Origin: Escherichia phage vB_EcoP-R1
Reading direction: 5' to 3' (one strand)
DNA: 40,875 bases
Sequence record: OQ703102.1
The position numbers and the translations under genes are program-made. This document shows, piece after piece, positions 20,819 through 25,727 of the stretch. Position 1 is the first letter of the stretch. Each line of letters starts with the position of its first letter. The notes below the pieces were generated by a model, which did no database searches, was not told where the DNA came from, and was given only the letters and a program-made list of their open reading frames with translations.

Positions 20819-20841
20819 ACTTAACTATCACTATAGGACTC
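20819..20841 (+). promoter_or_regulatory. Phage RNAP promoter immediately upstream of the RNAP gene
   Basis: GACTTAACTATCACTATAGGACT; +1 G at 20836; followed by tandem repeats CAAGTGAAAGAC (20857 and 20881). Confidence 0.75.
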
Positions 20842-20910: not shown

Positions 20911-23592
20911 ATGAGCGTCATCTCTATTGACAAACATGACTTCTCTGATGTGTCAAACGCCATTGAGCCGTTTAACCTGCTGGCCGACCACTACGGGCAA
21001 GACCTTGCAGTCAAACAGCTTCAGCTTGAGCATGAGGCATATACAGAAGGCGAGCGACGTTTCATCAAGAACCTTGAGCGCCAGACCGAGCGCGGGGAAC
21101 TGGCAGACAATCAGGTCGCCAAGCCTTTGATGCAGACTCTGGTCCCTAAGATTGCGCAAGCCGTCAGGGAGTGGCACGAAGGCCTAGACGGGAAGCTGTC
21201 AACCTCGCGTCCTAGCGTAGCGTTCACCATGTTGAGCACTGAAGAGAAGGCCGTAAAGGACCGCTCTATGCGCATCTCCTGTGAGTCCGCTGCGGTTATC
21301 ATACTGAAGGTCATACTCTCCAAGCTGGTCAAGCCTGAAGGGATACCGATTACACCGATGGCCTCCGCGATAGGTCGCACACTTGAGGACGAAATCCGCT
21401 TCGGTCGCATCCGTGACAAAGAGAAGGAGCACTTCAAGAAGGCGATAGCTGAGAACCTGAACAAGCGAGCTGGGGCATCCTACAAGAAAGCCTACATGCA
21501 AGCGGTCGAGGCGTCCATGCTGGAGCAAGGCCAACTGGAAGATGCATGGGGGACTTGGAGTCCTACAGAGGCTGTCCACGTTGGCATCAAGATGCTCGAG
21601 ATTGTCATCCAGTCAACACAACTGGTCGAGCTTAAGCGGTACGGTGCTGGTAATGCAGCGGCTGACGTAGAGATGGTCCACCTGTCAGACTTCTGGGTCA
21701 AGAAGATGGCACAACGAGGATTCAGCCTTGCGGGTATCGCTCCAGTCTACCAGCCTTGCGTCGTTCCACCTAAGCCGTGGACTGGTGTCGTAGGTGGTGG
21801 GTACTGGGCCAAAGGTCGCAGACCGTTACCATTGATTCGCTTAGGGTCTAAGTCTGCGGTAGCACGTTATGAAGACGTATACATGCCTGAAGTCTATGAC
21901 GCTGTGAACATCATTCAGAATACACCTTGGAAAGTTAACAAGAAGGTATTGGACGTGGTGAACATGGTCGAGAAGCTGAACAACACGCCTATTGATGACA
22001 TCCCTCAGATGGAACCGCTGAAGCCTGAGGACTATGCTGGTGAAACCGAGGAGGAACTCAAGGCATGGAAGAAGGCTGCTGCTGGTATCTATCGCCGCGA
22101 GAAGGCCAGACAGTCACGCAGATTGTCCATGAGTTTCATCGTATCACAGGCCAACAAGTTCTCACAGTTTAAGGCCATCTGGTTCCCGTACAACATGGAT
22201 TGGCGAGGTCGTGTCTACGCTGTCCCGATGTTCAACCCTCAGGGTAACGACATGCAGAAGGGTCTACTGACTCTGGCGGTCGGAAAGCCTATCGGGGCGG
22301 ATGGTTTCAAATGGCTTAAAGTCCACACCGCCAACTGCGCGGGTGTCGATAAGGTAACCTTTGAGGAGCGTATCAAATGGGTGGAAGACAATCACGAGAA
22401 CATTCTGGCAGCAGCCAAATCACCGATGGACAGCATCGAGTGGTGGGGGAGTATGGACAGCCCCTTCTGCTTCCTAGCGGCTTGCTTCGAGTATTCTGGG
22501 GTGATGAACCATGGCTTGACCTACAATTGCTCACTTCCGATTGCCTTCGACGGCTCGTGTTCGGGGATTCAGCACTTCAGCGCGATGCTGAGGGACCACG
22601 TAGGCGGACATGCAGTGAACTTAACGCCGTCTGGTCAGGTGCAGGACATCTACCGTATAGTCTCAGACCGTGTGTCAGACCAGTTGAAAGAGCTATTACT
22701 GATCGGTACGGACGACGAGCTGGTGACCGTAGAGGACAAGAAGACTGGGGAAATCAGCGAACGCCTGAAGCTTGGGACCAAGAGTCTTGCGCGTCAGTGG
22801 CTGCAATTCGGTATGTCTCGCTCGGTCACTAAGCGCTCGGTCATGACTCTGGCCTACGGGTCGAAAGAGTATGGGTTCGCCGACCAAGTGTTCGAAGACA
22901 CCGTGATGCCAGCGATTGACTCCGGTAAGGGAGCAATGTTCACCGAGCCAAGCCAAGCGTCTCGCTTCATGGCTAAGATGATTTGGGAAGCTGTGAGTGT
23001 GACAGTAGTTGCTGCGGTTGACGCGATGAAGTGGCTTCAAGGTGCCGCCAAGCTGCTGGCTGCTGAAGTGAAGGACAAGAAGACTGGTGAAATCCTGAAG
23101 CCATGCCTTCCGGTACACTGGGTCACACCTGATGGGTTCCCGGTCTGGCAGGAATACCGCAAGAAGGATACCACTCGTCTGAACCTGATGTTCTTAGGGT
23201 CCTTCAACCTTCAACCTACGGTCAACAAAGGTACGAAGAAAGAGCTGGACAAGCACAAGCAGGAGTCAGGCATTAGCCCGAACTTCGTCCACTCACAAGA
23301 TGGTAGCCACCTCCGCAAGACTGTAGTCCACACGCACCGCAAGTATGGCGTGATGTCATTCGCAGTGATTCACGATAGCTTCGGGACCATCCCGGCTGAC
23401 GCTGAGTATCTGTTCCGTGGCGTCCGTGAGACGATGGTAGAGACATACCGCGATAACGATGTGCTGCTTGACTTCTACGAGCAGTTTGAATACCAGCTTC
23501 ATGAAAGCCAGCGCGACAAGTTGCCTGAGCTTCCGAAGAAAGGTAAACTGAATATCGAAGACATCTTGTCTTCAGACTTTGCATTCGCTTAA
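20911..23592 (+). CDS. 1: Single-subunit DNA-dependent RNA polymerase (gp1 homolog)
   Basis: 893 aa; NDFSD...PFN.LADHYG, GRIRD.E..HFKK, PCVVPPKPWTG..GGGYWA.GRRPL, AIWFPYNMDWRGRVYA, FDGSCSGIQHFSAMLRD, RSVTKRSVMTLAYGSKE, HDSFGT and C-terminal FAFA all parallel T7 RNAP. Confidence 0.97.
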   Translation: MSVISIDKHDFSDVSNAIEPFNLLADHYGQDLAVKQLQLEHEAYTEGERRFIKNLERQTERGELADNQVAKPLMQTLVPKIAQAVREWHEGLDGKLSTSRPSVAFTMLSTEEKAVKDRSMRISCESAAVIILKVILSKLVKPEGIPITPMASAIGRTLEDEIRFGRIRDKEKEHFKKAIAENLNKRAGASYKKAYMQAVEASMLEQGQLEDAWGTWSPTEAVHVGIKMLEIVIQSTQLVELKRYGAGNAAADVEMVHLSDFWVKKMAQRGFSLAGIAPVYQPCVVPPKPWTGVVGGGYWAKGRRPLPLIRLGSKSAVARYEDVYMPEVYDAVNIIQNTPWKVNKKVLDVVNMVEKLNNTPIDDIPQMEPLKPEDYAGETEEELKAWKKAAAGIYRREKARQSRRLSMSFIVSQANKFSQFKAIWFPYNMDWRGRVYAVPMFNPQGNDMQKGLLTLAVGKPIGADGFKWLKVHTANCAGVDKVTFEERIKWVEDNHENILAAAKSPMDSIEWWGSMDSPFCFLAACFEYSGVMNHGLTYNCSLPIAFDGSCSGIQHFSAMLRDHVGGHAVNLTPSGQVQDIYRIVSDRVSDQLKELLLIGTDDELVTVEDKKTGEISERLKLGTKSLARQWLQFGMSRSVTKRSVMTLAYGSKEYGFADQVFEDTVMPAIDSGKGAMFTEPSQASRFMAKMIWEAVSVTVVAAVDAMKWLQGAAKLLAAEVKDKKTGEILKPCLPVHWVTPDGFPVWQEYRKKDTTRLNLMFLGSFNLQPTVNKGTKKELDKHKQESGISPNFVHSQDGSHLRKTVVHTHRKYGVMSFAVIHDSFGTIPADAEYLFRGVRETMVETYRDNDVLLDFYEQFEYQLHESQRDKLPELPKKGKLNIEDILSSDFAFA

Positions 23593-23607
23593 CAGGAGGA
23601 GAAGTAT

Positions 23608-23838
23608 ATGTCAATTAAACTTGTAGCACACAACAGGACATACAACGATGGGTCGGGACGTTGCCATGTAGAGCTGACTTATAGGGATTTAGTCATTCTC
23701 CGAGACAGATTACAAGCGGGTGTGACTGGGTGGATTAAACCTAACGAGTACAACCTTATAGCTTCGATTGATGAAGTGCTTAACGCGTGGATGGAAGACG
23801 AGCGCACTCAGTATCCATCATTCCCTATAATTAGATAA
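23608..23838 (+). CDS. Hypothetical protein (between gene 1 and gene 1.1)
   Basis: 76 aa; strong RBS AGGAGGAGAAG; no recognisable motif. Confidence 0.5.
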   Translation: MSIKLVAHNRTYNDGSGRCHVELTYRDLVILRDRLQAGVTGWIKPNEYNLIASIDEVLNAWMEDERTQYPSFPIIR

Positions 23839-23848
23839 GGAGAGAGTT

Positions 23849-24064
23849 ATGAAATTTGCACACAAGCATGCTGGAGTTAATGGCGGGACTCAAATCGTGA
23901 CCGTAACAGAACACAACGGCAATGGTCTGGTGAAGACCACGGTCATTCCTACCGAAATGTCAAAGCAGCTTAACGTCCCATTCAAGACCCTCGTCTATCT
24001 TGTGGAATCCAGCCACGAGAAATACCTGAAAGACGCAGTGACCAAGCTGGAGCAGACCAAATGA
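23849..24064 (+). CDS. Hypothetical protein (between gene 1 and gene 1.1)
   Basis: 71 aa; RBS AAGGAGAGAG; no recognisable motif. Confidence 0.5.
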   Translation: MKFAHKHAGVNGGTQIVTVTEHNGNGLVKTTVIPTEMSKQLNVPFKTLVYLVESSHEKYLKDAVTKLEQTK

Positions 24065-24138
24065 CAGACCTACAGGTACTGGCCTTGTGGCTGGGAGCAC
24101 TCGCAGTATTCACTTTAATCCCACGCAGAAGAGGTTAA
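24061..24138 (+). CDS. Putative 25-aa membrane peptide
   Basis: MTDLQVLALWLGALAVFTLIPRRRG; start overlaps the upstream stop (ATGA); below the track cutoff. Confidence 0.3.
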   Translation: MTDLQVLALWLGALAVFTLIPRRRG

Positions 24139-24161
24139 CCTAAACTATCACTATAGGATTA
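24139..24161 (+). promoter_or_regulatory. Phage RNAP promoter (phi1.1-like)
   Basis: ACCTAAACTATCACTATAGGATT; +1 G at 24156. Confidence 0.8.
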
Positions 24162-24206
24162 GACTCAAGGTCATGACTCAAAGTCGTGGCCTTCATGATT
24201 AACCCT
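24159..24206 (+). promoter_or_regulatory. RNase III-type processing hairpin (R1.1-like)
   Basis: TTAGACTCAAGGTCATGACTCAAAGTCGTGGCCTTCATGATTAACC; near-identical to the copies at 15322 and 31550. Confidence 0.5.
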
Positions 24207-24231
24207 AACTCATTCAATCAGGAGCTACACC

Positions 24232-24411
24232 ATGTATCAGAACACTATCAACTTCGAGCGCATCCGTGAACGTCAGCAGACTGAAGATTATATTCCGAAG
24301 GGCCGAAAGCTGAACAAGACCAAGCGGGGCGGCGGTGTCAAGGGTGCTTTCCGTAACGCTGAAGGCAAAGACTCTATGGTCAACCAAGAGAAGTATTTCG
24401 TAGGAGCATAA
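24232..24411 (+). CDS. 1.1: gp1.1-like small basic protein
   Basis: 59 aa MYQNTINFERIRERQQTEDYIPKGRKLNKTKRGGGVKGAF...; the KGRKLNKTKR stretch matches T7 gp1.1 as I recall it; below the track cutoff. Confidence 0.6.
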   Translation: MYQNTINFERIRERQQTEDYIPKGRKLNKTKRGGGVKGAFRNAEGKDSMVNQEKYFVGA

Positions 24412-24414
24412 GAC

Positions 24415-24663
24415 ATGAGCAGACGTTGGGTATTTGATGCGTCCACCAGCCAGTGGTCATCGTTAGGCCGGACACACCGCGAGCTGAGTGAGGCAGGACT
24501 TGAGGTCAGAATGGATGTCCTGCCGTGCTCCGGAAAGACTCTGGTCCTAATCATTGAAGCAGACGGGAAGCCTCTGGTATCCCGCGAGTTCACCGAACAC
24601 GAAATCTTTAGCTGTGAGCAATGGTGCTTGCAACAACTGAATGCTTATAGGAGCTGGAAATAA
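24415..24663 (+). CDS. gp1.2-position protein (possible dGTPase inhibitor homolog)
   Basis: 82 aa (T7 gp1.2 85 aa) directly upstream of ligase; assigned by position and size. Confidence 0.45.
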   Translation: MSRRWVFDASTSQWSSLGRTHRELSEAGLEVRMDVLPCSGKTLVLIIEADGKPLVSREFTEHEIFSCEQWCLQQLNAYRSWK

Positions 24664-25727
24664 TGACTACGACTATTAAAACTAACCCGCACCGCGCTGT
24701 AGATTACTCTGAGTCTGGCGTTAAGAAAGCGCTGGAAGCTGCCGGGTCGCTGGAAGCTGAAGTGAAATATGATGGTGTGCGGTTGAATATTCCGGTATTC
24801 CCTGATGGGCGAACTGAATGGTTAAGCCGTGAGTCAAAGACGCTTCCGGCCTTAGACCATTTGTCAACAGTTGGTCAGGACATCGGAGCGTGCCGTGCGT
24901 CCGACTGGCGATGGTTCCTGAAGCAAGCAGGACATGAAGTATCTGGCCTGATGATTGATGGCGAGGTGATGGTCAAGGGTGTAGACTTCAACACGTCCTC
25001 AGGTCTTATCCGAACCATGTGGTCTGACCGCAAGAACTACAAGTGGAACATGAACCCTAAGGCCGATATGGAGACCAAGAAGTCTAACAAGGTTCCATTC
25101 CAGATTAGCCATGAGTTCCTACAAGTGGTCGTCTACGGGGTCATCGACCTTAACGTCATCAACGACCCGAAAGCAGAAGGTCCTATCCATAGCGTCACAC
25201 GCCTGAAGGCCGAAGCTATCGTCCCTCTCCTCCAGAAATACTTCCCGGAAATCGACTGGGTTCTGTCTGAGTCACACACGGTCTATGACCTTGAGTCGCT
25301 CAACTCCCTGTACGAACAGAAGCGTCTGGAAGGACACGAGGGTCTGGTAGTCAAGGACCCGCTGGGTAAATATAAGCGTGGCAAGAAGTCAGGCATGTGG
25401 AAGATGAAGCCTGAGGAGACCATCGACGGGACCGTGTGTGGCCTAGTGTGGGGGACTCCTGGTAAGGCTAACGAAGGTAAGGTCATCGGCTTCGAGGTTC
25501 TGCTTGAGGATGGCATGGTGGTTAATGCTTGTGGTCTGACTGAAGAACAGAAGGACGAGTTTACGGAAGCCTGTAACACTGATACATATATTCTCGGTGG
25601 AATCAATCCATACGAAGGCTGGCAGTGTGAAGTACTCTTCATGGAGCGGTTCCCTGATGGCTCCCTTCGTCACCCCAGCTTCAAGTGCTGGCGTGGAACG
25701 GAAGATAACCCGACCGTTAAGAGCTAA
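24663..25727 (+). CDS. 1.3: ATP-dependent DNA ligase (gp1.3 homolog)
   Basis: 354 aa; adenylation motif KYDGVR (AEVKYDGVRLNI); conserved position. Confidence 0.93.
   Translation: MTTTIKTNPHRAVDYSESGVKKALEAAGSLEAEVKYDGVRLNIPVFPDGRTEWLSRESKTLPALDHLSTVGQDIGACRASDWRWFLKQAGHEVSGLMIDGEVMVKGVDFNTSSGLIRTMWSDRKNYKWNMNPKADMETKKSNKVPFQISHEFLQVVVYGVIDLNVINDPKAEGPIHSVTRLKAEAIVPLLQKYFPEIDWVLSESHTVYDLESLNSLYEQKRLEGHEGLVVKDPLGKYKRGKKSGMWKMKPEETIDGTVCGLVWGTPGKANEGKVIGFEVLLEDGMVVNACGLTEEQKDEFTEACNTDTYILGGINPYEGWQCEVLFMERFPDGSLRHPSFKCWRGTEDNPTVKS

Follow-up and report, generated by a model that had tools for sequence, protein, structure and literature searches.

T7-type phages make a set of small early (class I) proteins, among them gp0.3 (Ocr), gp0.4, gp0.7, gp1.1 and gp1.2, which are encoded in the neighbourhood of gene 1, the RNA polymerase gene, upstream of the ligase gene; these proteins are non-essential and have no role in replication or assembly. 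In the T7 record, the interval between genes 1 and 1.1 contains the promoters phi1.1A and phi1.1B alone and no RNase III site is annotated there; the RNase III site R1.1 is nevertheless known from this gap in T7, and it is annotated in the T3 record. The same gap can carry gene 1.05 in T3-type phages (Pfam PF25755, Phage_T3_1_05) or the related ‘gp1.05/1.06’ cassette in Kayfunavirus, which is present in some genomes and absent from others. Here we analyse a 40,875-nucleotide (nt) stretch of Escherichia phage vB_EcoP-R1 (OQ703102.1; hereafter, the window), in which three back-to-back open reading frames (ORFs) of 76, 71 and 25 amino acids (aa), here called ORFs A, B and C, occupy positions 23608–24138 on the + strand, 3′ of gene 1. 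They share with the class I genes their small size and their place near gene 1 and upstream of ligase, and genes 1.1 and 1.2 are their immediate downstream neighbours. By analogy, their expression may also coincide with that of the RNA polymerase gene or follow it shortly, and they may vary among T7 relatives, be dispensable and have no part in replication or assembly. They differ from the class I proteins in having no sequence or fold relationship to them and in filling a slot that is empty in T7; to our knowledge, there is no 25-residue membrane peptide among gp0.3 Ocr, gp0.4, gp0.7, gp1.1 and gp1.2.

The three ORFs and their translation signals are as follows.

23594–23599, + strand: Shine–Dalgarno sequence AGGAGG of ORF A, 8 nt before its ATG, read from the sequence
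23608–23838, + strand: ORF A, 76 aa
23837–23842, + strand: Shine–Dalgarno sequence AAGGAG of ORF B, 6 nt before its ATG and overlapping the ORF A stop codon
23849–24064, + strand: ORF B, 71 aa
24049–24052, + strand: Shine–Dalgarno core GGAG for ORF C, inside the last codons of ORF B
24061–24138, + strand: ORF C, 25 aa, MTDLQVLALWLGALAVFTLIPRRRG

Gaps of 15 nt and 10 nt separate gene 1 from ORF A and ORF A from ORF B, and ORFs B and C overlap by 4 nt, the ATG of ORF C sharing bases with the TGA of ORF B (ATGA). The original prediction, made from the letters of the window alone, had described three ORFs with exactly these coordinates and lengths. It had also assigned strong ribosome-binding sites to the first two, in agreement with AGGAGG at 8 nt and AAGGAG at 6 nt, and had called the third product hydrophobic; ORF C indeed comes first for hydrophobicity among the 300 ORFs of 20–40 aa in the window. 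Its statement that the equivalent slot in T7 is free of genes agrees with the T7 record.

vB_EcoP-R1 belongs to the genus Kayfunavirus, the K1F-like T7-family coliphages. The 1.4-kilobase (kb) region around the three ORFs is 98.2% identical to that of Enterobacteria phage IME177 and, as a whole, matches 225 phage records, nearly all from Kayfunavirus; ORF frequencies were compared across about 220 records of relatives. ORF A occurs in 39 records, ORF B in 219 and the DNA of ORF C in 221. The locus is therefore no single inserted accessory cluster of three genes: only ORF A is patchily distributed, and ORFs B and C are near-universal among the 225 records. That all three are genes, as had been proposed, is borne out by PHROG family matches for ORFs A and B, by ratios of non-synonymous to synonymous polymorphism (pN/pS) below 1 for all three, which indicate purifying selection, and by an ORF C frame that is open in 29 of 29 distinct nucleotide versions. 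From sequence comparison, we consider it very probable that ORFs A–C are real, conserved, co-transcribed and coupled genes.

The shortest of the three provides the most unexpected part of this picture. An ORF of 25–26 codons lies at the same place in every related locus examined (more than 35), and in each its start overlaps the stop of the upstream gene as ATGA, GTGA or TAATG. Its own stop may be TAA, TGA or TAG, and all of these variants terminate at the identical codon position. Across the 29 versions, the ORF C frame is the only one of six that is always open, and its pN/pS of 0.27 compares with 1.27 and 1.03 for the two remaining forward frames. In 22 of 26 distinct contexts, GGAG or GAGG occurs as a Shine–Dalgarno core 8–11 nt upstream, even though the tail of ORF B differs between them. 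The most divergent versions, at 61–74% nt identity, are those of locus L031 (VTDNQLWLTLWSAFLITFIVFQRRRG) and of Citrobacter phage CR8 (MTYLQLFALWMGALAVFTLIQQRRG); both retain the hydrophobic core, W10 and the RRG tail. An idea that ORF C is far more conserved than its surroundings was rejected by a flank-by-flank comparison of identity: ORF C tracks the genome backbone rather than exceeding it, with ORF B as the outlier. No PHROG family corresponds to ORF C, and the equivalent gaps of T7 and T3 contain no hydrophobic small ORF like it. A frameshift fusion of ORFs B and C is unlikely, as their junction shows no conserved slippery site.

An alternative is that the 78 nt of ORF C are conserved as DNA or RNA, as the flank of a promoter or origin, as a leader that supplies or couples the ribosome-binding site of gene 1.05, or as a recombination linker, and that the peptide has no function. 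Several features of the locus fit this. The ORF C stop abuts position −17 of a promoter in the window; in relatives with the gene 1.05 cassette, the Shine–Dalgarno sequence of that gene (AGAGG) lies within the last codons of ORF C, with its ATG 4–5 nt after the stop; cassette polymorphisms (ORF B alleles, and the presence or absence of gene 1.05) break exactly at the ORF C borders; synonymous divergence is lower in ORF C (0.29) than in ORF B (0.45–0.52); and the primary replication origin of T3 is annotated in the equivalent region. However, a conserved nucleic acid would account neither for a pN/pS that is low in one frame and near or above 1 in the others nor for a start codon, length and stop position that stay constant in every locus despite changes from TAA to TGA or TAG. 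The L031 and CR8 versions have diverged in nucleotides and yet keep the encoded core and tail, and the stretch is equally conserved whether it precedes the promoter or a 470-nt gene. We found no RNA structure signal in it (z = +0.87), and a search of Rfam with both strands of 23300–24800 gave no match. We therefore regard conservation of the stretch as DNA or RNA alone as quite improbable.

Two genomes show ORF C without ORF B, which argues that it is independent of its upstream neighbour. In CR8 (genus Caroctavirus; L035, 1037–1251), ORF C, the promoter that follows it and the hairpin are all kept, and an unrelated 45-aa ORF, which overlaps the ORF C start as TAATG, takes the place of ORF B. 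In a 39-kb metagenomic contig (Logan SRR31227532; L034, 2501–2800), the body of ORF B is deleted and ORF C is intact (MPDLQ...). On the same contig, ORF A runs on into the final nine codons of ORF B, a change from TGA to TGC permitting read-through; this fusion may represent a genuine deletion mutant or have arisen during assembly.

These two cases bear on the proposal that ORF B serves ORF C as a small chaperone or as a partner that neutralises it, so that the peptide stays soluble or inactive on its way to the membrane, a role comparable to that of secretion chaperones or antitoxins. The overlap of stop and start codons and the strict adjacency of the two ORFs in about 220 genomes are what such a pair would be expected to show. 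However, ORF C persists without ORF B in CR8 and L034, alleles of ORF B and variants of ORF C assort independently, and ORF B falls to 42% aa identity while ORF C is nearly constant, which is unexpected for a tight partner. The fold matches of ORF B (below) are partial, to far larger proteins and at 3–15% identity. A chaperone or antitoxin role for ORF B is, in our estimate, rather improbable.

By its sequence, ORF C is a candidate single-pass small membrane protein, with a hydrophobic segment and asymmetric flanking charge. For the core of 15–16 residues, the Hessa free energies sum to −1.9 to −2.6 kcal/mol in six of six variants; the flanking charge is −1 or 0 on the N-terminal side and +2 or +3 on the C-terminal side, and no variant has lost the core or the charged tail. 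Small membrane proteins of bacteria and the peptides of type I toxin systems, such as KdpF, AcrZ, ShoB and TisB, exert their effects through larger membrane proteins that they bind, or else by perturbing the membrane. ORF C shares their architecture (20–50 residues, comprising a single hydrophobic helix and a tail that is short and charged) and differs from them in having no sequence similarity, in showing no antisense RNA (no Rfam match on either strand) or stress-regulated context, and in its location in an early operon of a lytic phage. In one record, that of phage IMM-002, ORF C is named ‘DUF2842’; we rejected this assignment, as there is no Pfam match at E values of up to 1.

ORF B encodes a basic (isoelectric point (pI) of 9.35), soluble protein that matches phrog_8082 (listed as ‘unknown function’; E = 4e-41) with residues 1–66 across the whole 66-position profile. 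It forms 154 protein clusters and ranges from 42 to 99% identity among the phage records that contain it: at least 80% in 105 records, 60–80% in 50 and less than 60% in 64. Where found, it always precedes ORF C, and its pN/pS is 0.13–0.34. In three genomes (L007, L008 and L039), nt identity to the window is 96–97% in the 3′ end of the RNA polymerase gene, drops to 58% in ORF B and returns to 92–95% in ORF C and 93–96% in gene 1.1. Salmonella phage ST59 is among the genomes in which nt identity is 58% in ORF B and 93–97% in the 3′ end of the polymerase gene, in ORF C and in gene 1.1. The ORF B alleles fall into three classes, a 71-aa type, a 66-aa type and a divergent type. The pattern marks ORF B as a genus-wide gene that is evidently swapped as divergent alleles inside a conserved backbone.

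The AlphaFold2 (AF2) model of ORF B (predicted local distance difference test score (pLDDT) of 93.5) consists of a three-stranded antiparallel β-meander, a short helix and a long C-terminal helix. Matches to this fold are partial and to much larger proteins, and viral predicted structures in BFVD that match it are uncharacterised proteins only. The best structural match is to the LptE (RlpB) lipoproteins, whose two-layer fold spans about 130–170 residues, at only 3–9% identity and with ORF B about half their size; what matches is a common sheet-plus-helix unit. We rejected ORF B as an LptE/RlpB lipoprotein because its sequence lacks a signal peptide, a lipobox and any cysteine. It was likewise rejected as gp1.1, the name that it carries in the records of EcoDS1, Dev2 and K1F (AM084414): ORF B has no Pfam match at E values of up to 1, and the Phage_1_1 match falls on the ORF at 24232–24411, so this name is wrong.

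The basic pI and the confidently modelled meander and helix also raise the idea that ORF B binds nucleic acid, as an AP2-like, integrase N-terminal-like or ribosome-hibernation-like protein that acts on transcription or translation of the phage or the host, or at a nearby origin, with ORFs A and C as unrelated neighbours. ORF B adjoins the region that holds the primary origin in T3. No sequence match links it to any DNA- or RNA-binding family, however, and a protein whose target is one fixed site of the phage would not usually have its alleles replaced in a conserved backbone. We consider this function for ORF B quite improbable.

ORF A is the sole truly accessory gene of the three, present in about one in six relatives; K1F is among the phages that do not have it. 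Its acidic (pI of 6.05), soluble product matches phrog_28104 (listed as ‘unknown function’) over its full length (residues 1–76 of 76; E = 5.5e-52). The copies in the 39 phage records are all at least 83% identical and always lie directly 3′ of gene 1, and pN/pS is 0.40. The best AF2 model (pLDDT of 83.8) predicts a β-hairpin and two helices. Homologues are scarce: there are only 9 clusters in a collection of 5.8 billion proteins, and an exhaustive phmmer scan of 1.84 billion representatives returned five clusters only, at 34–51% identity. The four distant relatives all lie directly after a T7-type RNA polymerase gene; in three of these a homologue of ORF B follows, and the fourth contig stops right after ORF A. 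As distant relatives occupy the identical slot, ORF A is evidently an old and repeatedly lost gene of this slot rather than a recent import. It is flanked by similar Shine–Dalgarno stretches, CAGGAGGAGAAGTAT and TAAGGAGAGAGTT (window positions 23593–23607 and 23836–23848), and loci without ORF A (L003, L004 and others) carry an apparent hybrid of the two, CAGGAGAGAGAGTT, which suggests that ORF A was lost or gained by recombination between the flanking stretches. ORFs A and B were also considered as paralogues; this was rejected, as BLASTP produced no alignment and the hhalign probability was 0.5%.

The patchy distribution of ORF A and the divergent allele island that ORF B forms between near-identical flanks are features that dedicated inhibitors of specific anti-phage defence systems might display. 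Both products are small, soluble and phage-restricted, and their genes lie in the early region beside genes that are known to act against defences in relatives of T7; the adjacent gene 1.2 encodes a dGTPase inhibitor (phrog_6515). On the other side, neither sequence is in the supplementary files of one large phage accessory-gene screen, and ORF B occurs almost throughout the genus, whereas an inhibitor of a single system is typically less widespread. That ORF A, ORF B or both are such dedicated inhibitors is possible, although we consider it unlikely.

Searches for function and origin returned little. The view that the three products have no recognisable motifs holds for Pfam, NCBIfam and PADLOC, in which none of ORFs A, B and C has a match; sequence-profile searches of the PDB with ORFs B and A also gave none. 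A clear homologue with a housekeeping function, which would have spoken against a role in host takeover or anti-defence, was absent from the results of both sequence and fold searches. The whole cluster had no blastn match in 5,426 complete Escherichia coli genomes and ORF B had no tblastn match in plasmids, on which grounds we rejected an origin from the host or from plasmids. The supplementary files of the accessory-gene screen contain none of these sequences, ORF C included, and a literature search on the name of the phage found nothing.

The transcription signals and genes around the three ORFs are as follows.

20824–20838, + strand: phage RNA polymerase promoter core ACTATCACTATAGGA, a perfect copy, 73 nt upstream of gene 1
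20911–23592, + strand: gene 1, T7-type single-subunit RNA polymerase, 893 aa (from the ORF list and the RNA polymerase annotation in the best-matching records)
24139–24161, + strand: phage promoter, counterpart of T7/T3 phi1.1, with an exact core match and +1 at about 24156
24167–24193, + strand: 12-base-pair hairpin in the 5′-terminal part of the RNA made from this promoter, probably corresponding to RNase III site R1.1 (predicted fold, −20 kcal/mol, z = −2.8)
24232–24411, + strand: gene 1.1, 59 aa (Pfam PF08200, Phage_1_1, E = 1e-10; phrog_4383)

Gene 1.2 (dGTPase-inhibitor family) starts at 24415 and the ligase gene at 24663. The ACTATCACTATAGGA core of the second promoter is at 24144–24158. 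With up to 3 mismatches allowed, the promoter pattern matches the + strand of the window 10 times (11 times when both strands are counted), versus 1.09 expected by chance. The promoter arrangement is likewise annotated in T3 and CR8, and the T3 record places the R1.1 stem–loop at the equivalent position relative to phi1.1. All of the predicted T7-type signals of the interval are retained in R1, with ORFs A–C upstream of them. We detected no σ70 promoter or terminator signal in the scanned interval of 23400–24500, which runs from the end of gene 1 through the three ORFs to the start of gene 1.2; in the annotation of relatives, the early terminator follows gene 1.3. Because no promoter or terminator signal intervenes between gene 1 and the end of ORF C, ORFs A–C are probably co-transcribed with gene 1. 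This is the layout of T7-type early (class I) genes, which lie in the gene 1 transcription unit with no intervening terminator, and the sequence is thus consistent with the expectation that the ORFs belong to the early, host-interaction part of the genome. The predicted promoter at 20824 can drive gene 1 together with ORFs A–C and, given its perfect core 73 nt upstream of gene 1, the polymerase could boost its own gene and the three ORFs; we know of no phage promoter at the corresponding position upstream of gene 1 in T7.

Compared with the K1F reference, the R1 sequence is circularly permuted: its gene 1 starts at 20.9 kb rather than at around 2.6 kb. No terminal direct repeat was detected using the first 40–200 nt of the window.

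The gene 1.05 cassette is a further variable element of this gap. Its sequence is unrelated to ORFs A–C, it is far longer (about 156–171 aa) and it lies after ORF C; it is absent from the R1 window. Cassettes of this kind directly follow ORF C in L002 (2344–2814), L005 (1424–1939), L006 (1481–1948) and L031 (4560–5054); they have several divergent N-terminal types, and the promoter follows the cassette instead of ORF C. Gene 1.2 (window positions 24415–24663) is also allele-variable, at 75–96 aa, in the otherwise similar loci L006–L008, L034 and L039. The stretch from gene 1 to the ligase gene looks like a mosaic of exchangeable small genes.

Taken as a whole, with its observed and its conjectural parts, the explanation of ORFs A–C as early-expressed host-interaction factors seems to us about as likely to be right as wrong. 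Under this explanation, the three would be translated from the same transcript as the phage RNA polymerase, with translation of ORF C coupled to the upstream gene, and would serve interaction with the host rather than replication or assembly. ORF C would form a single inner-membrane helix with its N terminus outside and its RRG tail in the cytoplasm, in keeping with the positive-inside rule, and might pack helix-to-helix against a conserved inner-membrane protein of the host or against itself, since the small-residue positions A8, G/A12 and A15 and the invariant W10 fit such packing. The effect might be an altered membrane of the infected cell that, for example, excludes competing phages or blunts a membrane-acting host response. 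ORF B (soluble and basic, with a sheet and helices) and ORF A (soluble and acidic) would be cytoplasmic binders of variable host or defence proteins, which would explain the turnover of alleles and the patchiness. The mechanism, derived from sequence features, is the tentative part of this account and is perhaps somewhat unlikely in the form given.

Several observations weigh against a role in host interaction, or against a membrane peptide as its agent. The conservation of ORFs B and C across the genus could equally mean a role in the phage cycle, for example near the replication origin, which lies in this region in T7 and T3 and is annotated there as the primary origin in the T3 record. Neither sequence nor fold comparisons linked any of the three ORFs to a homologue of known function. 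The hydrophobic core of ORF C, at only 15–17 residues, is short for a membrane span. Its synonymous divergence is below that of ORF B, its last codons contain the gene 1.05 ribosome-binding site in relatives with that cassette, and part of its constancy may be due to DNA-level constraint or to homogenisation by recombination.

ORFs A and B are already in databases as hypothetical proteins; what is new is the recognition of ORF C as a conserved gene. Only 1 of 10 public records inspected annotates it (IMM-002, under the DUF2842 name), and in records of relatives a 39-aa ORF in another frame is annotated over it. Because a gene found in more than 200 genomes is unannotated in nine of ten records, standard annotation evidently misses conserved microproteins even in T7-type phages. 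These and other annotation problems are spread over EU734172, HG813241, AM084414, MZ398247, MF630921 and MZ234011, among which ORF B appears as ‘gp1.1’, gene 1.2 as a ‘transporter’ and ORF C as ‘DUF2842’. The host labels of MT350292 (Enterococcus phage EFA-1) and PV615262 (Acinetobacter phage vB_Aba_01KA) look doubtful, as the DNA or encoded proteins of this region are 84–95% identical to those of E. coli Kayfunavirus phages. The small proteins of phages in general have been reviewed (PMC11323111).

Should none of them show a phenotype, ORFs A–C stay ordinary hypothetical phage genes. ORF C is a small and easily tested candidate, as a single stop codon would remove it and leave its neighbours untouched. 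Screens for host range or counter-defence could reasonably include ORF B, with its swapped alleles, and ORF A, with its patchy distribution. K1F-like phages find use in phage therapy and serve as models for the infection of encapsulated E. coli. A bolder and distinctly unlikely reading is that ORF C is an overlooked, genus-wide early membrane microprotein that targets a conserved inner-membrane complex of enterobacteria, for example so that superinfecting phages are kept out or an abortive-infection effector that acts at the membrane is disarmed, with the fast-evolving upstream gene (ORF B, or its replacement in CR8) as a host-specific adaptor or counter-defence partner. If this reading is true, ORF C and its upstream gene would constitute a new early module of two parts in a phage family that is among the best studied.

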